Shown: positions 2,550 to 40,839, counted from the stretch's first letter. The stretch: 43,072 nucleotides of DNA from Minisyncoccota bacterium (GCA_043784805.1 JAYVXX010000094.1:1-43072), one strand, 5' to 3'. Translations and numbers: made by a program. The notes: a model not told the origin generated them from the sequence alone.

Positions 2550-2723
2550 TCACGGTGCAATTACTTCTAAAAATGTAATACCAAGTACCTCGCCATGGTG
2601 CATGTCTTTGGAGGTTATTGTCAACTTATTAGTGAGCTCGCGGAAGGAATCCGCCCCCTCACAGTCCACCAAATAGCGTAGATCATTGCCATATATCTGC
2701 TTACGGTAGAATTGTAGGGTCAT
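2550..2723 (-). CDS. Hypothetical protein (57 aa)
   Basis: MTLQFYRKQIYGNDLRYLVDCEG... The ATG lies 2 nt after the TGA of the upstream gene. Confidence 0.4.
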   Translation of the reverse strand: MTLQFYRKQIYGNDLRYLVDCEGADSFRELTNKLTITSKDMHHGEVLGITFLEVIAP

Positions 2724-2725
2724 AG

Positions 2726-3178
2726 TCATTTATTAAATGTAATACTATCCGAGCTCATCAAATGATCGAAAAGATCAGCCTTTATCTTAAAAATAGGCTC
2801 AGCCTCCCGCTCAATAATTACAGGCTCAGCGTCCACGGCTATGGTATTCTCAAAGTCATGTACAGTATGTGGCTTTGTAAGATCAATTTTCCGGTCCATG
2901 AAAAGCTCAACAATTCTAAACCAATTATCCAAGTTAATACCAAAGTAGTCCAGCTCCGGATAGTTAATAGAAATAAGCCCATTCAGGTTCACGCTAATGC
3001 CCGCATATTCAATACTGGCGTATGGATACACGGAGTCAATCCCCTCCGATGACAGGTAAAAAGTAACGCCATTGATCTTATAGTAACAAAGGATTCCATC
3101 GCCCCCATTTTCTATCTCTATCTGCTGCGCTTTTTCAATAAGCGCACGCACCCGCGCCTCGTTTTTTGTTTGGATCAT
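2726..3178 (-). CDS. Hypothetical protein (150 aa)
   Basis: ORF with a 4-nt overlap with the upstream gene. No motif recognised. Confidence 0.65.
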   Translation of the reverse strand: MIQTKNEARVRALIEKAQQIEIENGGDGILCYYKINGVTFYLSSEGIDSVYPYASIEYAGISVNLNGLISINYPELDYFGINLDNWFRIVELFMDRKIDLTKPHTVHDFENTIAVDAEPVIIEREAEPIFKIKADLFDHLMSSDSITFNK

Positions 3179-3429
3179 AGTACCTCTGCTAAATAATTAG
3201 TTACAAGTGCAAAACCCCCGCCCGAATATACCGGGCGGGAAAGTTCAGCTAGTAATTTACTCTGGTTTACATAGTCGAACATGTTCACCATGACGTAATA
3301 ATCGACAGGGCTGAGCCTATCAATGACCGCTCTTTTCTCGTCTACGTACCCATATTGATTATCGTATCTTCCCCAGATAACAAGAGAAGCAGATTTAAGC
3401 TCATCAAATGATCGTGATATCTCTGTCAT
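3175..3429 (-). CDS. Hypothetical protein (84 aa from the ATG at 3429)
   Basis: The ORF-track start at 3438 is a GTG. The ATG at 3429 forms an ATGA overlap with the stop of the upstream micro-ORF. Confidence 0.6.
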   Translation of the reverse strand: MTEISRSFDELKSASLVIWGRYDNQYGYVDEKRAVIDRLSPVDYYVMVNMFDYVNQSKLLAELSRPVYSGGGFALVTNYLAEVL

Positions 3430-3566
3430 AGGTCGCACTCAATCCATTTATGACCCTGAGCATCTGCCATTTTCTGACAGTCGTACCGTACATAGGCATG
3501 TGCAAATCCCATCAAGTAACCCACTATGAGTGCAATTAAGACAATGACAGTTTGTTTCTTATTCAT
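3426..3566 (-). CDS. Small membrane peptide (46 aa)
   Basis: MNKKQTVIVLIALIVGYLMGFAHAYVRYDCQKMADAQGHKWIECDL. GAGGA lies upstream, and there is an ATGA overlap with the downstream gene. Confidence 0.5.
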   Translation of the reverse strand: MNKKQTVIVLIALIVGYLMGFAHAYVRYDCQKMADAQGHKWIECDL

Positions 3567-7118: not shown

Positions 7119-8990
7119 ATGCGACAACTAAGCAAGCAAACTCAAGATAAGCTGAGGGACGCTCTGCGGGATGTACCCAAAGACCAATTAGACACGGAAA
7201 CGATAAAAATGATCGCCGGGGATTTTTACTTGTACCTTGAGAGAAATCTAATGATAAAGGACAAGGTGACAGGAGCTATTGTGCCATTCGAGCTGAACTG
7301 GGCGCAGAAGATCTTTGTTGGGATGGTGCTCGCCGATCTGGAAGCTGGGCGTCCAGTGCGGTACATTATTCTGAAAGCACGCCAGCTCGGCATTAGTACA
7401 GTGATTGAGGCTCTCTGTTTTTGGTGGACATCGACCCATCGCAATATCAACTCCATTATTATGGCGCACGAGCGAGAGGCTAGTAAGAACTTGTACGAAA
7501 TGTTCCGCAGGTTCTACCAAAATGCTCACCCGTACTTCCAGCCAACACTAAAATACAACACTAAGTCTGACCTGACTTTTGATGCTGATGATGAAGCGAA
7601 GATGGCTGCGGTGAGGAATAGGAACCCAGTTCCGGGACTCGGGAGTAAGATCTCGACATTAGTCGCGAAAGACGACACGGGTCGGTCGGGGACTAATCAC
7701 TTTTTCCATGGCTCAGAGGTTGCTGCCTTTGAAGACTCGGCTGATGTTATTTCGGGAGTCATTCAGACAATTCCACTCGCCTCAAAGACCTTCGCCTTTT
7801 TGGAGTCGACAGCAAAAGGTGTCGGTGGGTATTTCTTCAATGAGTGGAATGCGGCTCAGAAGGGCCTGTCTGCCTATAAGCCGTTCTTCTTGGCATGGTG
7901 GCAGCATGAGGAGTATGAACTACCCCCTAGCGGTGGAAAAGCTCCCTGGAACGATTATGAGCAGGAACTGAGGGGTATATTTGCCGATCAGGGAATGGAC
8001 ATGGAGACCCAGGAGCGAAAGATCGCTTGGACTCGTCGTAAGCAACTCGAGTTCACCTCGGACCCAAAGAAGTTCTTTCAGGAATACCCACATACCCCAA
8101 TGTCAGCATTCTTGGCGAGTGGGAACTACGCCTTTCCGATTGAGATATTGATGAAAATGCTCGATGTCGCACAGAAGCGAGAGCCTCAGTATGGGGAGAT
8201 TTATTACGACGATGAGCGTAAGGCACATCTAAAGATAGTGGAAAATTCACCAATGAAGGTATGGTATCCGGCGGTGAAGGGTCTGAAGTACGTAATCGGC
8301 GTGGATACGGCGGAGGGAATTACCGTGAGTAGCTCTACAGGGAAAGAGGGAGACTTCTCAGTGATTACAGTGATGGAGCCACAAAGCCTTACCGTGGTTG
8401 CTCGTTGGCGTGGGCACATTGATCCTGATGAACTTGGTAATGTCACCTTTGATATTGGGACGTACTACAACACGGCGCTCGTAGGTGTTGAGGTCAATAA
8501 CCACGGACTTGTTACGGTACAGAAATTGAGGGACCGATTTTACCGGAACCTGTATCAAAGAGAGACTAATGAGGAGAATCAGTTCCAGGAGAGAACTTCG
8601 GTACTAGGTTGGAGAACTGATCGTAAGACGAAACCACTCATTATTAAAAATCTGGCAGCGGCACTACGGGATGGGGACATTAAGGAGTTCGACCCAGTGT
8701 GCATAGGTGAAATGATGACCTATATGCAGGGAGACAGAGGGGAGTATGATGGTAAGGCAAATGGCCATGACGACTGCGCTATGTCTCTCGCAATTACGCT
8801 ACATATGGCGGAGTGGAGTTCGTATGATGTACAATTGGCGAAAGAGAACATAAACAAAAGCAACCCTAAAATAAAAAAACATGGCAATGCCGCCAATGAA
8901 TCAAGGGATACCGACAGGAATTCCGAACTCAGATCCAAGCGCAGGGACGCAAGGGCCTCCGCAAAAGCCTCCCGTCGTTCCAACGGGTGA
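7119..8990 (+). CDS. terL: Terminase large subunit
   Basis: 623 aa. ILKARQLGISTVIEA is a Walker-A-like motif typical of the ATPase domain of large terminases. Acidic nuclease-like C-terminal half. Sits immediately upstream of the portal gene. Confidence 0.85.
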   Translation: MRQLSKQTQDKLRDALRDVPKDQLDTETIKMIAGDFYLYLERNLMIKDKVTGAIVPFELNWAQKIFVGMVLADLEAGRPVRYIILKARQLGISTVIEALCFWWTSTHRNINSIIMAHEREASKNLYEMFRRFYQNAHPYFQPTLKYNTKSDLTFDADDEAKMAAVRNRNPVPGLGSKISTLVAKDDTGRSGTNHFFHGSEVAAFEDSADVISGVIQTIPLASKTFAFLESTAKGVGGYFFNEWNAAQKGLSAYKPFFLAWWQHEEYELPPSGGKAPWNDYEQELRGIFADQGMDMETQERKIAWTRRKQLEFTSDPKKFFQEYPHTPMSAFLASGNYAFPIEILMKMLDVAQKREPQYGEIYYDDERKAHLKIVENSPMKVWYPAVKGLKYVIGVDTAEGITVSSSTGKEGDFSVITVMEPQSLTVVARWRGHIDPDELGNVTFDIGTYYNTALVGVEVNNHGLVTVQKLRDRFYRNLYQRETNEENQFQERTSVLGWRTDRKTKPLIIKNLAAALRDGDIKEFDPVCIGEMMTYMQGDRGEYDGKANGHDDCAMSLAITLHMAEWSSYDVQLAKENINKSNPKIKKHGNAANESRDTDRNSELRSKRRDARASAKASRRSNG

Positions 8991-10986
8991 TACTTCTGAA
9001 AAGGAAGTACATGAAGAGATTGAAGACACTTCTTCTGAATTAACATTGAAGGATGCCCTTAAAAAATATGTGAACGCCAAGAAGTACGTTGATAATTCTC
9101 TTCGTAAGCGCTGGGATTGGTATTTCCGTATTTACAAGGGTGAGCGTGTCAATCCAAGCTATATTGGGTCTATCTCTGTAGTTAATCGTGAACCCCACAC
9201 TGTTATCGAGACACTTGTTTCGAGTATCGCTGGAGGGCTTCCAAAGTTTCATTTCATTCCAACAAACCAAGAACAGTCAAAAGACACAGAGGTACTGAAC
9301 GGTATTCTTGACTATTACATGGGCTACAATGACATGAATATCAAGAACCAGATCTGGGTTCGGGATATGCTACTTTATGGGACGGGTATTCTTCACGTTG
9401 CCTGGAAAGACGGAAAGGTACTAATTGAGAACATTGCGCTCCGTGATTTCTTTGTTGACCCAACATCCACCGACTTCACCAAGACCCAGAGTCCTGCTCG
9501 CTATGCTGGGTTTGAGTATTTAGTCACAAAGACTCAGCTTGAGAATACGATGATCTATTCTGCTGAGCAGGACAAAATGATTCCTAAGTATAAGAATCTC
9601 GACAAGATCGGCAATACTCCACAGTACAATGGCGACGTCTCGACGATGGACAAGAAGTTCAAAGACCTTTTCTTTGGATCAACCTTGGACAATGCAGCCT
9701 ACGACCAGGTGCATGTAGTACTGCTTTATGATCTTGACTCAGGGAAAATTGTAGAAATCGGCAACCAGAAGGAGTTTATTTACTACGCCGATTCACACTT
9801 GCAGCGAGATGAGGAGACTCGTCCAAGCCAATCTCTTGTTGAGGGCGCACCTGAGAAAGAAACTCTTCAAGAGATTGAAAAATTCCTCCCATTTGCAGCT
9901 CTTCGTGACTATATCGACTCTTCACTATTCTATGCTGAAGGTGAGATGGCTGTGATGATGGGTGATGCTGAACTTCTTTCTGATTACGAGAGTATGGACG
10001 CTGATAACAATGCTTACCAGAATACTCCAATGTACCAGATCGACCCTCAGTTTGCTGATATGGCGAGTGAGATCGAGACAATCCCAGGCGCCGTATACCC
10101 TATTCCAAAGGGTGCTCTTTCACCTATTGAGCGTCCACAGCTAGGCCAAGACCTTGAGTTGAAGAAGAACGCTATCGCTGATCGTATGCGTCGTGCGACA
10201 GCTGCTGACGAGGCCGTACAAGGTGTTTCACAGCAACAGGGGCGTATCACAGCCACCGAGGTTTCAACACAGCTACAACAGTCTGAGGGACGTTTCTCAA
10301 CCAAGATTACTAACCTCGGCTATGGCGGGTATGCTCAACTCGGATCAATCATCTTCAAGATGGTTCAGATCTTTGCGACTCAAAACACTGTTATCCGCAT
10401 AGTTGGAAAAGATGGGGTTGAATTTAAGAACTTTGACCCATGGGAATTTAATGGAGAATACGAAGCTGAAGTGAGCCTCGATAGCGACATTAAGCGAAAG
10501 CAGATGGAAGTTGGTCAGAAGAACGCTCAGATCTTCCAAATCCTTGAGCAGGCGCCTATCTTTGACCCAATTGAGAAGTACCGATTTATCATTAAGCAGA
10601 TCGACCCTACCTTCACAGACGATGAGTTCAACGAGATGCTTAATAAGCAACCAGCACAACCAGGGGCTGATACTAAGGACTACGCACAGCTCGATAAGCT
10701 CTATGCGCTTGTTCCTCCAGCCACTAAGCAGGCGATCTTGAAGCTTCTTGGGCTCCCGGAAGATCCTGAGCTTGATGCTGAGATTCAAACAAACATGATG
10801 ACTCACGCAGGGACACAGGCTGATATTATGCACCCACATACAGACACTCAGGGCAATCCAATTGTAGGACCATCAGAGACGCCAATGCCAGATCCGGTAC
10901 AGCCTACACCACCACCAGCTCAGGGAAATTTAACCGTTCACCTACACCCTCAACCAGAGCCTAAGCCTAAACCAGTTAACAAATAA
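8881..10986 (+). CDS. Portal protein
   Basis: 701-aa ORF directly after TerL and before the scaffold and capsid genes, of typical size. The start (8881, 8887 or 8896) overlaps the TerL tail by about 95-110 nt. Confidence 0.75.
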   Translation: MAMPPMNQGIPTGIPNSDPSAGTQGPPQKPPVVPTGDTSEKEVHEEIEDTSSELTLKDALKKYVNAKKYVDNSLRKRWDWYFRIYKGERVNPSYIGSISVVNREPHTVIETLVSSIAGGLPKFHFIPTNQEQSKDTEVLNGILDYYMGYNDMNIKNQIWVRDMLLYGTGILHVAWKDGKVLIENIALRDFFVDPTSTDFTKTQSPARYAGFEYLVTKTQLENTMIYSAEQDKMIPKYKNLDKIGNTPQYNGDVSTMDKKFKDLFFGSTLDNAAYDQVHVVLLYDLDSGKIVEIGNQKEFIYYADSHLQRDEETRPSQSLVEGAPEKETLQEIEKFLPFAALRDYIDSSLFYAEGEMAVMMGDAELLSDYESMDADNNAYQNTPMYQIDPQFADMASEIETIPGAVYPIPKGALSPIERPQLGQDLELKKNAIADRMRRATAADEAVQGVSQQQGRITATEVSTQLQQSEGRFSTKITNLGYGGYAQLGSIIFKMVQIFATQNTVIRIVGKDGVEFKNFDPWEFNGEYEAEVSLDSDIKRKQMEVGQKNAQIFQILEQAPIFDPIEKYRFIIKQIDPTFTDDEFNEMLNKQPAQPGADTKDYAQLDKLYALVPPATKQAILKLLGLPEDPELDAEIQTNMMTHAGTQADIMHPHTDTQGNPIVGPSETPMPDPVQPTPPPAQGNLTVHLHPQPEPKPKPVNK

Positions 10987-35116: not shown

Positions 35117-36088
35117 TCAAAACAGTGATTTTTGAGGCACTCCATTGAACACATCCCTTGCTAAAGCCTCCATTGGTGGAGTCTCTGGCTCTCTTAGCTC
35201 CTCCCAGCAATGAGCGGAAACTTTCTCAATACCGGCTCCCATAAAGAACTCTCCCCAGTCCTTATATTTCCCAGGCGGCTGGAGAACTCTATGCGGCACT
35301 ACAAGGTCGACCGCCTTGCGAAGTTTATCTCCTGCCTCGTCGTTGTCCCCAGCGTATACTAGTTGAATCCCTGTCTTCAGGGCGTACTTCGCTAGATTGG
35401 TAATCATAGCAATTCCAGAGGCGGACGGGATGGCTACCCAGGGTATACAGGCGTGCTCGAGCACCGCCGCATCTGAACAACCCTCAACAATGAAGAGCTT
35501 CTCTCCTGGGTGTAGGTTCCACTTCCCATATAGGGTCATCTCCGCTCCAGGAAGCATTGTGAAGCGTCGATCTCCTGAGATATGACGGACCTGAGCAAAG
35601 GGGATTGAATCTCGAGCATGATTAAAGTAGGGAATGAGGATCCCAGGTCCCATGCCGTGTACACCTTCAGACCACCTCCAGCCAAGGCTATCGAGCACTT
35701 CGAGGGGTAGCCCTTTGAGATCAAATTCTCTAGGGATTTGTGGGAGAGTCTCCCATAGTGGAAATAATTCATACTTAGTGTAGTCAGTTTTAGGGATTGA
35801 TTGTTCTGGTACAGGCAATGGTCTTGGCATGACTCTTAATCTGTTAGGTGGATTTGTTTCTGGTTTCCAGTTTGGGTCACGAAGGGCTGGGTAGAAATTA
35901 GAGATATGGTAGCGCTTGGCGCAGGAGAAGCACTCAATCCATCCATCGGGGTATACCTCAGCTGAGGGGTCACTATCAGGATGAATGAGACAATTCGTCA
36001 GGAATCCCTTCCCTCCTCTCTTAATCTTCCTTCCATCCATTTCAAGGGCGTGTCGGAAGTCTGATAGGGTAAATGGGTAGTCGTTCAT
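35117..36088 (-). CDS. DNA primase (CHC2 zinc finger plus TOPRIM)
   Basis: CLIHPDSDPSAEVYPDGWIECFSCAKRYH (CxxH...CxxC), LFIVEGCSDAAVL and AGDNDEAGDK (TOPRIM E and DxD). Confidence 0.8.
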   Translation of the reverse strand: MNDYPFTLSDFRHALEMDGRKIKRGGKGFLTNCLIHPDSDPSAEVYPDGWIECFSCAKRYHISNFYPALRDPNWKPETNPPNRLRVMPRPLPVPEQSIPKTDYTKYELFPLWETLPQIPREFDLKGLPLEVLDSLGWRWSEGVHGMGPGILIPYFNHARDSIPFAQVRHISGDRRFTMLPGAEMTLYGKWNLHPGEKLFIVEGCSDAAVLEHACIPWVAIPSASGIAMITNLAKYALKTGIQLVYAGDNDEAGDKLRKAVDLVVPHRVLQPPGKYKDWGEFFMGAGIEKVSAHCWEELREPETPPMEALARDVFNGVPQKSLF

Positions 36089-36930
36089 TTCTTTCCTTTC
36101 TTTGGGGGAATTCCAATTATCGGCTGGACTCCGTACTCCTCAAGCTTGAGTCCTACTCGTTTCATTTGCCAGATGGACTCCTGGCGCCGGGTGAAACGGC
36201 TCTTGTACATGTTGATGATAAGATCGCCAGCCTCGCTGATCTCAATCCCGAGAACTTTGGTACTGACCTGCTTAATAGCAGTAGTCCCGTAGATCTTGTT
36301 CATCCCGCCAGCCTCAGCCTTTGCTGTATGAGAAACTATAATGACGGTAATTTTCAACTTCTTTACCAGAGAGTTGAGCACCATCATAAACTTACGTTGG
36401 TGGGCTAGGCGGTCTTCTCCCTTGCCGTGCTCCTCGTTGTCGAACACGAAGTTGATGTGGTCTAGGACGAATAGCTCGATACCTCGATCGTCGTGCTTAT
36501 CCTTTATCCACTGGAGGATTGTGTTAGCGCTCCACTCTCCATCAAGTACTGATGAGGGAAAAATCTCTAGGTTCTTGCTAGATTTTATCATTCTCATTCC
36601 CCCATCCCCGACAATGAGCCTGACTCGGTTGTAGACGTCTGGAATATCATCCTCAAGGATTAAAAGCCCAGTCTTCGTGCCAATTTGTAACTCATGGGAG
36701 ATCATGTTGAGCACGAAGCTCGACTTACCAATACCAGATTCACCAAAGACGGTAATGATCTCGTAGCCCATCTTATTGCCAAATCCTTGCCCCATGTACT
36801 CATCGAGCCCCGGGAATCCTGTGCTGTGCTTGTCAGTGCGCCCAAATGTAGCACGGCGGAGATCCGCCTCTTTCTCATAATCGCTTAGATATACGATCTG
36901 CTTAGACACTGGCTCCTTTCCATAAGCCAA
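36085..36930 (-). CDS. DnaB-like replicative helicase (RecA-fold domain)
   Basis: TGFPGLDEY..., VFGESGIGKSSFVLN (Walker A) and ELFVLDHINF (Walker B). 4-nt overlap with the primase gene. Confidence 0.75.
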   Translation of the reverse strand: MAYGKEPVSKQIVYLSDYEKEADLRRATFGRTDKHSTGFPGLDEYMGQGFGNKMGYEIITVFGESGIGKSSFVLNMISHELQIGTKTGLLILEDDIPDVYNRVRLIVGDGGMRMIKSSKNLEIFPSSVLDGEWSANTILQWIKDKHDDRGIELFVLDHINFVFDNEEHGKGEDRLAHQRKFMMVLNSLVKKLKITVIIVSHTAKAEAGGMNKIYGTTAIKQVSTKVLGIEISEAGDLIINMYKSRFTRRQESIWQMKRVGLKLEEYGVQPIIGIPPKKGKK

Positions 36931-37081
36931 ATCGCGGCGTGAAACTAGCTCCCTTTCCCGAAGGAGTTTTAGACATTGTGGTTCGCTTATGCTTATTGGT
37001 TATTGCCATTTTATATCGGTAATGGAAATCTTTGCAAGGTCGGTGTATAGTAATTTAAGAAATATAAGTAATAAAAAGTAT

Positions 37082-38071
37082 ATGCCTCGAGGATTGGATT
37101 ACTCGTTCGCAAGACCCTCTCCGGAGTCTATAAAGTCCGGTGGATATGACTTCATTTGCCGGTATTTGTCTCCTCAGCCAAATAAAAATATCAGCGCCCA
37201 GGAGACTGCCGCTGCGCTCGCCGCCGGTCTCTCAATTGTACTTGTATGGGAATCGACTGCGACTCGTGCACTAGATGGCTTCGCAGCCGGTGCTCAAGAT
37301 GCTCACGATGCCCTACAAGTGGCACAGGATGCTAATTGCGGGAATATACCCGCCATCTACTTTGCGGTCGATTTTGACGCCACTGAAGCAGACCAGCTGA
37401 AGATTGATGATTACCTCCACGGGGCTGCCTCAATTCTTGGTCTACCAAGAACGGGGGTATATGGTGGGTATCACATCATTAAACGGTGCTTCGACAATAG
37501 TTCCGCCTCCTGGGGCTGGCAGACATATGCTTGGTCTGGTGGTAACTGGGACAGTAGAGCCCACCTTCGTCAGGTACAAAACGGCGTATCATTTAATGGC
37601 ATGGACGTTGACATTGATGAAGCAATTGATGCAACTTTCGGCCAACTATCACCTAATGACCATGACATGGAAAACATCCAAATCATCAAAGATAATAAGC
37701 AGAATGAATTTCGTCGTGACGGTGAAGACACCGTACGTCAAATCTTCAATATTCCTAGTGAGCGATTCTTCACCGATGTACTTGGTGATAGCTTCGACAA
37801 TGTTCGCCTTGTCCCCTCTGATTGGCCGCTAGACCCTGCGTTGTGGGCTTCCGAGCGTGAGAAGCTCCGTCCACAGCTCGATGCTGCGAATGCGCGGATT
37901 CTCACCCTTCAGGCTGAGCTTGTGTCCATAACAGCGCCAAAGCCAACTCCCGATCCTACTCCAGTCCCTGAACCTATCCAACCAACCCCAACTCCTTCTC
38001 CAGTAGTTCTCCCAGGGATTAACCTTGAAGAACTACTCAAAAGTATTTGGAAACTAATCACTAAAAAATAA
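37082..38071 (+). CDS. Endolysin: DUF1906 / GH25-like glycoside-hydrolase domain, Pro/Thr linker and C-terminal amphipathic helix
   Basis: GLDYSFARP...FICRYL...AGLSIVLVWES...IPAIYFAVDFD...TGVYGGY resembles the Rv2525c-like (DUF1906) lysin domain, from memory. The ATG at 37082 is preferred over the ORF-track start at 36989. A holin-like gene follows. Confidence 0.7.
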   Translation: MPRGLDYSFARPSPESIKSGGYDFICRYLSPQPNKNISAQETAAALAAGLSIVLVWESTATRALDGFAAGAQDAHDALQVAQDANCGNIPAIYFAVDFDATEADQLKIDDYLHGAASILGLPRTGVYGGYHIIKRCFDNSSASWGWQTYAWSGGNWDSRAHLRQVQNGVSFNGMDVDIDEAIDATFGQLSPNDHDMENIQIIKDNKQNEFRRDGEDTVRQIFNIPSERFFTDVLGDSFDNVRLVPSDWPLDPALWASEREKLRPQLDAANARILTLQAELVSITAPKPTPDPTPVPEPIQPTPTPSPVVLPGINLEELLKSIWKLITKK

Positions 38072-38565: not shown

Positions 38566-38697
38566 TTGAATCCTTATTTTTCATCACCTAGTCTCAGGTA
38601 CTTAGTAGGGGTTATTCCGATCTGTTCCCTATTGAGAGAGGCAGGACCCCGAGGATTATTCCGAGAAAGGAGGGTGGGTGTATGAAACCCACCTGCA

Positions 38698-40839
38698 TTA
38701 TGGCGCAGATGGAGAGGCATTTGCAAGTTTACCCTTCCCTGGAACCTGGAATGAGAACAGCGGCTTGTCGCTCATTAGCCCTGCATCACTCACTACTTGG
38801 TCTTGATATCCGGTCTCATTTTTAACGAGCCTAATACTTTCGACCTTACCAAGTCTTTCCGTACAGCCAGCAAGGTCATATACCTTGAGGCGCTTATCTG
38901 GCCTGTTCGGGTCTAACCGAACACCTCGACCTACCATTTGATAATACAGCGCCAAGCTCATCGTAGGACGGGCGAGCACTATTGAGTCAAGCTCTGGTAC
39001 ATCAAAACCAGTCGTGAAACAGCTCACATTGATGAGGTGCTTGAACTTACCGGCTCTGAAATCAGCAACGATCTGCTCACGCTCTTTGGCGGGTGTCTCG
39101 CCCGTGACCATCTTAGCATCGAGCCAATACTGATTGAGCATCTCACATGCTCTTTCACCTTGGCGAATCGACCCGCAAAAGATCAGGTTACGCTGGCACT
39201 TTCCGTCTATCTCCTGAATCGTGTCAGCAAGCGCTCTAAGGCGCCTATCGTCCCAAAAGCACTCCAACGAGTGTTCCGTATAGTCAGCTCCCGTACTGTT
39301 CACTTTGAGGTCTGTGAGGTCAACGTGCGGAGCAATGTAGTCGATTGGAGAAAGAAATCCCTCAGCAATAAGCTCAGGAGTTTCAACTTTGTAAACGATT
39401 CCACCGCTCCAAAAGCACGGGTGACCAATTCTCATCAACGTCTTCAGCACTGAGGTAGAGTAAAGAAATCCTTTTTTGTCCTTCTCGTACTTCTGAGTTA
39501 TGCGGTACGGCGTTGCAGTGAGTCCACAGATTTTTTTACAGTCGATGGCTTTGAGGAACTGGGTGTACATGCCGGACATGTTTTTCGGGTTAACCCCGTG
39601 GCAATTATGCACCAACACACCCCCAGCAAAATAATTGTTATTATCTTTTACCTGGAGATTGTAGACGTAACAACTGAGATTACTCTCTCCAAATCTTCCG
39701 TCACCTCCTTGTTCCAAAATCGTAATACTTTCCACCCGAGCTGGTTCAGCTTCTCGTCTTTCTTTCTGTCTTTTACTCGTCTTTTCCCAAAATGGGAGCT
39801 TCCATCTACCTCCACTGCAATCATCAGGAATGGATTTCCTAGATCTACTTTGTAGGCGGTAGGGTAATGACCAGGATTTAACTTCAGCTCCATAGTTCTT
39901 ATGGGTAATTCCGGTATCCAACCACGTCCAAGACTCTCCCAAAGCATTTGTTGTGGAACACTTAACCCAGTTCCGTTCCCACCAAGAACAAGTGGTCTGT
40001 GTCCTATTCTCTTCAAGGTATCTGACATCTTTTTCCGAGTAGCCATCTTTGCCATTGGATTCTTCTCCCTCATTCTCACTGAAGACGCTCGATCTATTCC
40101 CAATCGGCTGCATTCCTTGTGGAATATCTTGCCCATTTTGGTGAACCTCCAGTACTGATGATAATCCTTCACCATCACTATTGCTCCGCACTCTGTGCAA
40201 GGGATTTGTTCTACGGGACTCTTTTTTGATGGCATATACTATATCTCCTAACTTAATTTTCTGTGCTTGCACATACCCTTTTCCTATAACAAAAAAGGGA
40301 TGATCAGGTGTGCTTATTATAGACTCACCAGATACATCAATACAATACATTTTACTAGGGATAAGCTTTTTACTAACCGCCTCAACCATTTTTACTTCAA
40401 TGGTATTAGTCTTATGATTGTAAGAACGAATAAGATCACCGGGAGCAATGGTGTCGATACGTACACCATCTATTTGAGTTGACCCAACAAAACACTCGTC
40501 AATGAGGACGTACTTAAAATCTCTGAATAAATCCGGGGAGCGATAGATGCTGCCAATTGTGGCGTAAGTGTATTTAGAAATCTCTTTGCTACGAACACTC
40601 GCTGAATAACGCCCAATATCGGCAATTCGGTATGATTTAAGCTTGTCATAATTTTGCTCTAGGAGCTCTTTAGATGGTTGTAGGATTAGTACCGGCTCAT
40701 TCAGCCGGTGACAGATTTCAGCGATCATTAGGGACTTTCCAGCGCCCGTAGCCGCTTGGACTATGAACGGTTTGTTCTTGTCGAAGGCTCTCAGCGCCGC
40801 TTCCACAGCCTCTTCCTGATAGTGACGTAGCTTATACAT
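38698..40839 (-). CDS. SF2 DExH helicase (ResIII-like N-domain plus Helicase_C) interrupted by an intein; the extein is 416 aa
   Basis: RHYQEEAV, AATGAGKS (motif I), LIDE|CH (motif II, split), and the C-terminal domain motifs FTTGFDVPELD and QMVGRGVR. Confidence 0.85.
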   Translation of the reverse strand: MYKLRHYQEEAVEAALRAFDKNKPFIVQAATGAGKSLMIAEICHRLNEPVLILQPSKELLEQNYDKLKSYRIADIGRYSASVRSKEISKYTYATIGSIYRSPDLFRDFKYVLIDECFVGSTQIDGVRIDTIAPGDLIRSYNHKTNTIEVKMVEAVSKKLIPSKMYCIDVSGESIISTPDHPFFVIGKGYVQAQKIKLGDIVYAIKKESRRTNPLHRVRSNSDGEGLSSVLEVHQNGQDIPQGMQPIGNRSSVFSENEGEESNGKDGYSEKDVRYLEENRTQTTCSWWERNWVKCSTTNALGESWTWLDTGITHKNYGAEVKSWSLPYRLQSRSRKSIPDDCSGGRWKLPFWEKTSKRQKERREAEPARVESITILEQGGDGRFGESNLSCYVYNLQVKDNNNYFAGGVLVHNCHGVNPKNMSGMYTQFLKAIDCKKICGLTATPYRITQKYEKDKKGFLYSTSVLKTLMRIGHPCFWSGGIVYKVETPELIAEGFLSPIDYIAPHVDLTDLKVNSTGADYTEHSLECFWDDRRLRALADTIQEIDGKCQRNLIFCGSIRQGERACEMLNQYWLDAKMVTGETPAKEREQIVADFRAGKFKHLINVSCFTTGFDVPELDSIVLARPTMSLALYYQMVGRGVRLDPNRPDKRLKVYDLAGCTERLGKVESIRLVKNETGYQDQVVSDAGLMSDKPLFSFQVPGKGKLANASPSAP
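39604..40494 (-). mobile_element. Class-1 intein (297 aa) inserted in helicase motif II
   Basis: Starts with CFVGST (block A). TPDHPF supplies the block B TxxH. VYNLQVKDNNNYFAGGVLVHN followed by C gives blocks F/G with the terminal HN and a +1 Cys. Confidence 0.85.
39648..40235 (-). CDS. Free-standing Vsr/DUF559-type endonuclease ORF nested out of frame inside the intein
   Basis: 195 aa, in a different reading frame from the helicase/intein ORF ((40839-40235) mod 3 = 1). AGGAG lies 9 nt upstream of its ATG. CTEC...HKEC is a zinc-finger-like pattern. ATRKKMSDTLKRIG is NUMOD3-like. QQMLWESLGRGW...YKVDLGNPFLMIAVEVDGSSH...DRKKDEKLNQLGWKVLRFWNKEV is the DUF559/Vsr-like core. Confidence 0.7.
   Translation of the reverse strand: MPSKKSPVEQIPCTECGAIVMVKDYHQYWRFTKMGKIFHKECSRLGIDRASSVRMREKNPMAKMATRKKMSDTLKRIGHRPLVLGGNGTGLSVPQQMLWESLGRGWIPELPIRTMELKLNPGHYPTAYKVDLGNPFLMIAVEVDGSSHFGKRRVKDRKKDEKLNQLGWKVLRFWNKEVTEDLERVISVVTSTISR

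Follow-up and report, generated by a model that had tools for sequence, protein, structure and literature searches.

Dassa et al. (2009) described fractured genes, in which split inteins flank a free-standing Vsr-like or GIY-YIG endonuclease gene (PMC2677866). Their model contains the steps 'fracture' (II) and 'in-frame insertion' (IIa); an overprinted state is absent from it (PMC2677866). Endonuclease open reading frames (ORFs) that lie in an overlapping frame or antisense within contiguous inteins are reported in two preprints from the Gogarten lab, both of which credit Gorbalenya 1998 with the first hint (bioRxiv 10.1101/2025.01.02.630785; bioRxiv 10.64898/2026.09.14.751524). Here, we analyze a stretch of 43,072 nucleotides deposited under Minisyncoccota bacterium (GCA_043784805.1 JAYVXX010000094.1:1-43072; hereafter the window, meaning the whole stretch). 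On its minus strand, a superfamily 2 (SF2) helicase gene reads through an intein, and a second ORF, which encodes a Vsr/DUF559-like nuclease, overprints the middle of that intein in the +1 frame.

Several described systems come close to this layout. In actinophages, Gosselin, Arsenault & Gogarten found LAGLIDADG and VSR-like genes, both antisense, as well as endonuclease VII-like genes on the same strand in frame 3 (bioRxiv 10.1101/2025.01.02.630785). The hosts are DNA polymerase, minor capsid, terminase, and thymidylate synthase genes, and the proposed origin is the invasion of a mini-intein by a free-standing endonuclease gene (bioRxiv 10.1101/2025.01.02.630785). Phillips, DeSimone & Gogarten describe a cyanobacterial dnaX intein with a same-strand out-of-frame LAGLIDADG gene (bioRxiv 10.64898/2026.09.14.751524). 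In ShiLan-type insertions, an HNH endonuclease encoded out of frame lies in a phage methylase ORF (Arsenault et al. 2025, PMC11855218). On the side of the nuclease, Taylor et al. (2011) characterized I-Bth0305I (3R3P), an EDxHD homing endonuclease encoded in a group I intron (PMC3239194). The window shares with the Gosselin-type loci a second ORF that is a recognizable endonuclease and an extein/intein frame that stays open. It departs from a canonical bifunctional intein, since the middle of its intein in frame 0 (residues ~207-367 of the helicase precursor) contains no Pfam domain, and from a fractured gene, since its helicase frame has no stop after the intein's N-terminal part.

Intein anatomy and the nested gene

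The helicase ORF matches phrog_16 (DNA helicase) with an E-value (E) of 2.9e-82. Pfam places ResIII/DEAD at residues 2-116 and Helicase_C at residues 545-642, on either side of the intein (Table 1). The intein comprises precursor residues 116-412, with the junctions VLIDE↓CFVGST... and ...GVLVHN↓CHGV (arrow, splice junction or insertion point). Cys116, position 1 of the intein, directly follows ...LIDE, and C[FV].. is kept in all compared loci. At the other end, ...GVLVHN is followed by C413 at +1, and HN↓C or HN↓S is found in nearly all surveyed loci. Block B, STPDHPF (residues 176-182, window 40294-40314), aligns with T..HP of the homologues. The Pfam profile PF14890 (Intein_splicing) matches residues 126-412 (E 3.2e-13, 50.2 bits, cutoff 35.8), and the PT-HINT profile scores 28.8 bits on the intein (cutoff 27.7). 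To judge from these junctions, splicing would rebuild the DECH motif II, the insertion being at DE↓CH. The predicted spliced helicase has 416 residues, equal in length to the intein-free homologues. The GC content is 41.4% in the intein and 48.3% in the exteins.

Table 1 Features of the overprinted helicase gene and other annotated genes of the window
Feature	Position	Strand	Basis or remark
SF2 helicase gene (ResIII/DEAD, RadD-like), 713-aa precursor	38698..40839	minus	ORF list, Pfam ResIII + DEAD + Helicase_C
N-extein, aa 1-115, ending ...VLIDE (first half of motif II / Walker B)	40495..40839	minus	
Class-1 intein, 297 aa, Cys1...His-Asn, +1 Cys	39604..40494	minus	PF14890; empty-allele gap
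N-terminal splicing region: block A CFVGST, block B STPDHPF, strands up to KLGDIVY	40236..40494	minus	
Shine-Dalgarno AGGAG	40245..40249	minus	9 nt upstream of ATG (40233-40235); made from intein Leu-Gly-Asp codons
Nested gene, 195 aa	39648..40235	minus	+1 frame over intein middle
Frame-0 'linker', ~aa 207-367, hydrophilic, stop-free read-through of endonuclease gene	39739..40221	minus	
C-terminal splicing region: RVESITIL..., block F YVYNLQV (aa 391-397), block G ...GVLVHN	39604..39738	minus	
C-extein, aa 413-713 + stop, begins CH...	38698..39603	minus	
Terminator-like hairpin + T-run right after helicase stop	38673..38693	minus	consensus scan; such sites no commoner than in shuffles
Terminase	7119-8990		
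Portal	8881-10986		
Endolysin	36989-38071		

Frame 0 has no stop across the intein, and the third frame has 38. The nuclease is readable in frame +1 only. Read in frame 0, the overlap gives a hydrophilic product, 44% of which is made up of its five commonest residues (R, G, S, E, and K).

The nested start is offset from the helicase start by 604 nt and therefore lies in the +1 frame. It directly follows the N-terminal splicing region on the 3' side, and a +1-frame stop precedes the ATG by one codon. The nested TAA (39648-39650) lies within the QVK codons right after block F, 44 nt before the end of the intein. Positions 39648..39738 (91 nt, the last 30 nuclease codons) are thus dual-coding with the C-terminal splicing region: the +1 reading VVTSTISR, followed by the stop, lies over frame-0 CYVYNLQVK. 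The nuclease tail ...STIS(K/R) is the +1 reading of block F VYN(I/L), and this overlap is kept in homologues; the conservation of the nuclease C-terminus is probably imposed by the intein.

AGGAG, GGAG, or GAGG stands 8-14 nt before the ATG that precedes the zinc finger in 7/8 compared loci. Conserved codons of the intein supply these Shine-Dalgarno-like motifs, namely Leu-Gly-Asp in the window and L005, and Asp-Glu-Val in Pseudomonas phage MR14, Vibrio phage CP-T1, and other Vibrio phages. Both CP-T1 and the window have a +1 frame that opens just one codon ahead of the ATG. The presence of the motif in seven of the eight loci, together with this late opening, favors internal initiation over frameshifting.

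An earlier note on this DNA, made from the sequence alone, had placed the intein at 39604-40494 within a 713-residue read-through and the 195-aa ORF at 39648..40235 in another frame, with AGGAG 9 nt before its ATG. These assignments are exact. The profile matches that it anticipated also appear, namely PF14890 on the helicase ORF, DUF559 on the nested ORF, and nothing significant in the frame-0 middle.

The nested product consists of an N-terminal zinc finger (C13, C16, H39, C42), a helical NPM...GH...GGNG linker, and a C-terminal PD-(D/E)xK nuclease. DUF559 (PF04480) matches residues 125-191 with E 4.7e-13 and 49.4 bits, above the gathering cutoff of 20.6. A family profile built from the window protein and 45 database homologues (46 sequences) finds the DUF559 structure 3HRL in the PDB with E 2.9e-12. 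The AlphaFold2 (AF2) model calculated with the family alignment has a mean predicted local distance difference test score (pLDDT) of 87.6, the core being at 86-98. In a Foldseek search with this model, 3hrl is the top match (E 4.4e-4, template-modeling (TM) score 0.66, normalized to the target) and I-Bth0305I (3r3p) is the second (E 5.5e-3, probability 1.0, target-normalized TM score 0.62); PvuRts1I and TnsA are further neighbors. The model thus indicates that the nested product folds as a Vsr-like PD-(D/E)xK nuclease, as the note had proposed from the ORF, and endonuclease activity is predicted. The residues invariant in the family (G86, D144, G145, H148, D156, G167, W168, and N175) are all present in the window copy, and so are the near-invariant K129, D131, and E142. 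By analogy, D131, E142, D144, H148, and D156 are putative active-site residues.

The N-terminal CxxC...C/HxxC module of the family profile is similar to L24e/MYM (FCS-type) zinc ribbons, and one homologue matches zf-FCS directly. The CxxC...HxxC finger of the earlier note holds for the window and does not extend to the homologues, which have CxxC...CxxxC (FCS/MYM/L24e-like). A NUMOD3 identity, which the note had suggested for the motif ATRKKMSDTLKRIG, is not adopted, as the motif has no Pfam NUMOD3 match even at E<=1.

Recurrence of the layout and selection on both frames

The same protein arises from an independent assembly: the Logan contig L106 encodes the exact 713-aa protein and is identical to the window over 3,942 nt. 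Searching the GenBank phages with the nested protein (tblastn) yields 40 records, and each match lies beneath an annotated 'helicase' or 'hypothetical' coding sequence. In Pseudomonas MR14, Vibrio CP-T1, Corynebacterium phi673, and four more Vibrio phages, the nuclease is +1 relative to an intein-containing host ORF, which reads through the intein at DE↓C...HN↓CH. A Planctomycetota metagenome-assembled genome (MAG) and a metagenomic contig (L005/L006) have the +1 layout as well, and the same offset is found in 11 named loci. A pattern scan of IMG/VR retrieved at least 311 relatives, and the layout was checked on the best 80. In 77 of these, the nuclease lies wholly inside an ORF of 430-1,773 codons in frame +1, and in none is it in +2. 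Five MAGs (Kapaibacterium, Chloroflexota, Bryobacterales, Polyangiaceae, and Ruminococcus) also have the +1 layout; the scan of GTDB genomes, made with a single sequence, gave 12 loci, and the cellular distribution is accordingly under-sampled. Taken together, isolates, viromes, and MAGs provide ~100 loci with the +1 offset, and the endonucleases of these loci are just 32-59% identical.

An exhaustive profile search gives 1,081 representative clusters at E<=1e-30. The best 150 representatives are 158-496 aa long, and none has the nuclease mid-way in a long protein. A search with the intein only gives two matches and is of no help toward mini-intein or in-frame relatives.

Several relatives depart from the overprinted layout. 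Three are free-standing beside helicase or SMC genes (L004, L050, and L059). Among them, P0001 (L004, 4001-4615) is the closest full-length relative of the nuclease (50% identity), with an SMC/AAA_23 gene right downstream. The first 12 residues of P0001 (MNYTLRTYQEEA) are similar to the N-terminus of the window helicase, MYKLRHYQEEA, a resemblance that suggests a deletion which joined a helicase start to the nuclease gene. L064 (~2686-3474) is a true fractured gene: its host frame stops after the intein N-part (...STDELQVL and two stops), meets 26 stops over the length of the nuclease gene, and is open again ahead of ...YVYDLEIEDNHNY...HN↓CG. A slightly shifted site, DEAHS↓C, holds the insertion. 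In a Planctomycetota MAG (L097, ~2896-3198), the nuclease frame is open for 101 codons only, inside an intact 1,817-aa host ORF with the intein AH↓CFPSGT...VLVHN↓CYK; this looks like a decaying endonuclease gene within a still-open intein. Finally, P0068 (496 aa) has the N-extein (ResIII), the intein N-part, and the zinc finger-DUF559 nuclease in one frame and ends at the nuclease stop. It is the sole one-frame case among the best 150 representatives, and is either a real frameshift or fusion variant or the product of an assembly indel.

When the codons of the nested ORF are permuted synonymously, with protein and codon usage kept, the helicase frame is open in 0/5000 trials. The same permutation leaves the host frame open in <=0.12% of trials at other loci, and shuffling the order of the nested codons gives the same outcome. 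The openness of both frames is not due to chance, as the note had argued from a simpler calculation. In accordance, over the 12,668 overlapped codons of the 77 embedded IMG/VR copies there are 0 stops in the host frame and 1,058 in the third. In the four non-embedded family members (L004, L050, L059, and L064), the equivalent frame contains 8-30 stops.

A stop in the host frame requires a T-ending nuclease codon before a codon that begins with AA, AG, or GA, so an open host frame costs the nuclease synonymous sites only. The wobble-T before such codons occurs at 0/3640 positions in the embedded copies and at 62/230 (27%) in the non-embedded copies. Elsewhere, the wobble-T is at ~25% in embedded and non-embedded copies alike.

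The pattern of substitution distinguishes the two frames. Over the overlap, the mean pairwise protein identity among eight diverged loci is 41% in the nested frame and 25% in the host frame. The nucleotide identity per codon position is 0.55/0.60/0.37 in the nested frame of the overlap, compared with 0.54/0.61/0.30 in the host frame of the N-terminal splicing region (7 homologous inteins aligned). The least conserved position is therefore position 3 of the host frame in the splicing region and position 3 of the nested frame in the overlap, i.e., the periodicity changes frame at the overlap. In two close pairs of Vibrio phages, 20/27 and 8/12 substitutions fall on nested position 3; 8 and 5 substitutions are non-synonymous in the nested frame, versus 25 and 10 in the host frame. 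The nested frame is under purifying selection, and the host frame is selected to stay open. The homologues thus agree with the reading of the earlier note, both frames being open and the nested one constrained.

Mobility, proposed mechanism, and alternatives

At E<=1e-20, 3,007 homologues of the spliced extein are retrieved. Among the best 120, 119 are without an intein, and the exception is the window's own protein. The next two homologues are 92% and 89% identical, and each is intein-free and exactly 416 aa long. The corresponding intein-free alleles, L104 (DEAH, VIDEAHGVNPKN) and L105 (DECH, IIDECHGVNPKN), are contiguous at the insertion site, and the gap in the alignment is the intein exactly. 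The sporadic presence of the intein among exteins of 89-92% identity implies recent mobility.

The surveyed insertions are mostly at DE↓CH of ResIII/DEAD helicases. SNF2-type ATPases carry the unit of intein plus nuclease too, at DE↓S(S/Q/H), as do Terminase_3 large terminases, at ..W↓CEEA, and a DnaX-like clamp loader (L070), at DE↓CH. All of these are Walker-B positions. Two of the loci, L023 (3-2528, large terminase) and L070 (633-4238, DnaX-like clamp loader), have two inteins each. The upstream intein is LAGLIDADG-type (Pfam LAGLIDADG_3 in L070, by eye in L023), and the second intein, at the Walker-B site, is the overprinted Vsr-like one.

From the anatomy, the domain identities, the dual selection, the start signals, the sporadic distribution, the exact empty site, and the recurrence in several host families, we consider it likely, with a probability of about 0.8, that the locus is a two-gene selfish element in the DE↓CH codons of a phage SF2 helicase, made of a frame-0 intein and an independent +1 homing endonuclease. 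The architecture proposed in the earlier note, a contiguous host ORF and intein overprinted by a separately starting Vsr/DUF559 ORF, is supported. In frame 0, the helicase mRNA would be translated through the intein, whose splicing halves would assemble around a soluble, unconstrained linker of ~160 residues, and the intein would excise itself to leave the 416-aa DECH helicase. In frame +1, the nuclease gene would occupy the stretch where ordinary inteins hold an in-frame endonuclease and would be translated from the same mRNA with its own Shine-Dalgarno motif and ATG. During co-infection, helicase alleles that lack the intein would be cleaved by the 195-aa nuclease in or close to the DE(A/C)H codons, and the broken allele would acquire both the intein and the endonuclease gene through recombinational repair. 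The overlap would be kept up by avoidance, in the endonuclease gene, of T-ending codons before AA, AG, or GA codons. This rule may also explain why the frame is always +1: there, the nuclease pays one synonymous rule, whereas in +2 the stops would involve codons with a fixed second-position T, Met included. The support for a homing role is circumstantial: the distribution is sporadic, the empty site is exact, and the unit has reached several host families.

Several observations weigh against this account. We infer protein splicing, internal initiation, and cleavage of the empty site for every member of the family. The folding of the splicing halves around the linker is argued from the conserved catalytic residues and from essentiality; the AF2 model of the frame-0 intein has a pLDDT of 35.7 (linker 21-29), and being calculated from a 3-sequence alignment it is uninformative. 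The match of the family profile to I-Bth0305I (3R3P) has E 0.14, which is not significant at the sequence level, and to our knowledge the DUF559 family has no established function. Among the eight compared loci, phi673 has no obvious Shine-Dalgarno motif before the nested ATG. No minus-strand promoter-like site was detected inside the helicase gene, and no regulatory RNA structure was detected at the nested start (folding z = -1.3). In addition, a peak of divergence between the window and the intein-free alleles lies in the 180 nt 5' of the insertion site and was considered as a co-conversion tract. The peak is also present between the two intein-free alleles, and therefore reflects ordinary local variability rather than co-conversion.

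Any frame-shifted domain raises by default the suspicion of a sequencing or assembly artefact, here two compensating indels in an ordinary bifunctional intein, and in P0068 one frame does encode N-extein, intein N-part, and endonuclease together. For the window, this can practically be dismissed: L106 is identical over 3,942 nt, the +1 offset recurs in the 11 named loci, in 77/80 IMG/VR loci, and in five MAGs, and indeed in ~100 loci of 32-59% endonuclease identity, the 0/3640 wobble-T signature is beyond what indels can produce, and none of the 150 best representatives has the nuclease mid-way in a long protein. The endonuclease could also be made by a programmed +1 ribosomal frameshift from the helicase frame, with no internal initiation, as a fusion of N-extein, intein N-part, and nuclease; P0068 is such a fusion in one frame, and the nested ORF does sit within an actively translated gene. 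Such a shift is extremely improbable, since in CP-T1 and the window a +1 stop lies one codon ahead of the ATG and leaves no space for a shift site, the Shine-Dalgarno motif is at canonical spacing in 7/8 loci, the point at which the +1 frame opens varies widely between loci, and free-standing and fractured-gene relatives encode the same protein alone. A functional fractured gene, in which the helicase halves are made separately and trans-spliced and the stop-free read-through is irrelevant, has a precedent within the family in L064, a true fractured case as in Dassa et al. 2009 (PMC2677866). However, the host frame is held open by selection (0/12,668 stops, 0/5000 permutations, wobble-T avoidance), which would be pointless if the read-through were untranslated; we regard trans-splicing at this locus as very unlikely.

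The nested gene could instead be a dead relic, an invading endonuclease gene that is now an untranslated pseudogene and is open through youth or by hitch-hiking on the host frame. Homing endonuclease genes decay after fixation, L097 retains just 101 open codons of the nuclease frame in its intact 1,817-aa host ORF, and translation of the nested ORF is itself deduced. We consider a relic unlikely in view of the nested-frame periodicity, of the substitutions, most of which are synonymous in the nested frame and non-synonymous in the host frame, and of the invariant and putative catalytic residues, which are intact in the window copy. The Shine-Dalgarno motif and the ATG are conserved, the nested frame is open over its full length in 77/80 diverged loci, and the sporadic intein among 89-92%-identical exteins points to recent mobility. 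About as unlikely, in our view, is a DUF559 nuclease with a non-homing job, such as phage exclusion, anti-defence, or repair, that is merely lodged in the intein. DUF559 is functionally uncharacterized, and phage homing-type nucleases can serve as weapons between competing phages. However, the nuclease gene and the intein move together into the same site of different ATPases, the gene sits at the canonical endonuclease-insertion point of inteins, and its relatives in fractured genes and beside helicase genes are in typical homing contexts. A non-homing job would, moreover, overlap with homing rather than exclude it.

Wider meaning, genomic context, and relation to known systems

A broader interpretation, which we hold to be slightly better than an even bet, is that the loci form a large clade of single origin, in which a zinc finger-DUF559/Vsr-like nuclease lies always +1 in a class-1 intein and hops among Walker-B codons, with overprinting as its main habitat and stable end-state. 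The clade would span at least four P-loop ATPase families (ResIII/DEAD helicases, SNF2, large terminase, and DnaX), and its fractured-gene and free-standing forms would be rare derivatives. Overprinting would then be no transient stage between endonucleases of the free-standing and the in-frame kind, its cost being one synonymous-codon rule.

Hundreds of phage and prophage 'helicase', 'terminase', and 'hypothetical' genes conceal a second selected gene that is uncalled by current pipelines; in CP-T1, MR14, phi673, and >30 Vibrio phages, the annotation shows the host ORF only. The family also fills a gap in the gene-breaking model of Dassa 2009, that of a contiguous intein with a non-fused endonuclease gene. 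One family holds the free-standing (L004, L050, and L059), fractured (L064), overprinted (~100 loci), and decaying (L097) states and possibly an in-frame fusion (P0068). With all neighboring states in one protein family, the order 'splicing domain first, endonuclease later' becomes phylogenetically testable. The locus is in addition a clean natural case of the upkeep of a long overlap, by one rule that is kept 3640/3640 times. For engineering, it is of interest that the inteins would tolerate an arbitrary linker of ~160 residues, and for gene targeting, that the endonucleases are small, monomer-sized, and apparently aimed at conserved Walker-B DNA.

The window appears to be a near-complete tailed-phage genome of ~43 kb, and besides the genes in Table 1 encodes tail fibres, an exonuclease, and a primase. 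Neither blastn nor megablast gives a nucleotide-level relative for it in the GenBank phage collection, and the phage is itself new. Many homologues of its helicase exteins, 57-70% identical, lie on metagenomic contigs of 41-48 kb. On the minus strand at 35117-36930, two adjacent ORFs match the primase/helicase family phrog_239 in swapped order: the upstream ORF (36085-36930) corresponds to the helicase part (profile 325-579) and the downstream ORF (35117-36088) to the primase part (profile 31-297).

The earlier note had held the architecture to be undescribed. In general terms this does not stand, as out-of-frame and antisense endonuclease ORFs in contiguous inteins have been reported; it stands for the same-strand +1 Vsr-like variant. 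The searched full-text literature, which covers few subscription journals, does not describe a VSR/DUF559-like gene that overprints an intein on the same strand, nor this Walker-B helicase family or its abundance. Newness therefore holds only for the specific variant, a widespread same-strand +1 Vsr-like gene in Walker-B-site inteins.

Compared with the nuclease I-Bth0305I, which is its only biochemically characterized relative, the nested product shares the Vsr-like fold, the arrangement of an N-terminal DNA-binding module and a C-terminal nuclease, and the E-D-x-H-D order of E142, D144, H148, and D156. It differs in its N-terminus, an FCS/L24e-like zinc ribbon with no NUMOD Pfam match at E<=1, and in its best match, which by sequence and by fold is the DUF559 protein 3HRL. 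The signals for membership in the EDxHD group are mixed, the 3r3p profile E of 0.14 being weak and the Foldseek probability being 1.0. ShiLan-type insertions resemble the window in that the endonuclease gene occupies an alternative frame of the insertion and the host frame is stop-free. However, they have no splicing domain, the insertion is kept in the mature protein, and the nuclease is HNH, whereas the window has an intein and a Vsr-like nuclease.

The fractured genes of Dassa et al. likewise have a Vsr-like PD-(D/E)xK nuclease with an N-terminal DNA-binding module, encoded on the same strand between the intein halves; the 3' end of the endonuclease gene overlaps the intein C-part, and the hosts are phage replication and repair genes. 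In these, the host frame ends behind the intein N-part, next comes a spacer of 27-51 nt, and the C-half has a separate start, whereas in the window the host frame is continuous. The loci of Gosselin et al. agree with the window in the contiguous extein/intein ORF, the structureless frame-0 middle, the second ORF between the splicing blocks, and the sporadic, mobile distribution. Their VSR-like genes are antisense only, and their same-strand case is only the frame-3 endonuclease VII-like one, whereas the VSR/DUF559-like gene of the window is on the same strand in frame 2 (+1). The hosts differ as well: that of the window is an SF2 helicase, and its relatives are mostly in non-actinobacterial phages. 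In accordance, tblastn with the window protein finds no PhagesDB-type actinophage save Corynebacterium phi673. Finally, in the overlap of the cyanobacterial dnaX intein, dN/dS (the ratio of non-synonymous to synonymous substitution rates) takes low values in the frame of the endonuclease and high values in that of the intein, the same pattern as in the window family. The dnaX case involves a LAGLIDADG gene and a cellular host, whereas the window involves a Vsr-like gene and a phage, with a relative (L070) at DE↓CH of a phage DnaX-like clamp loader.

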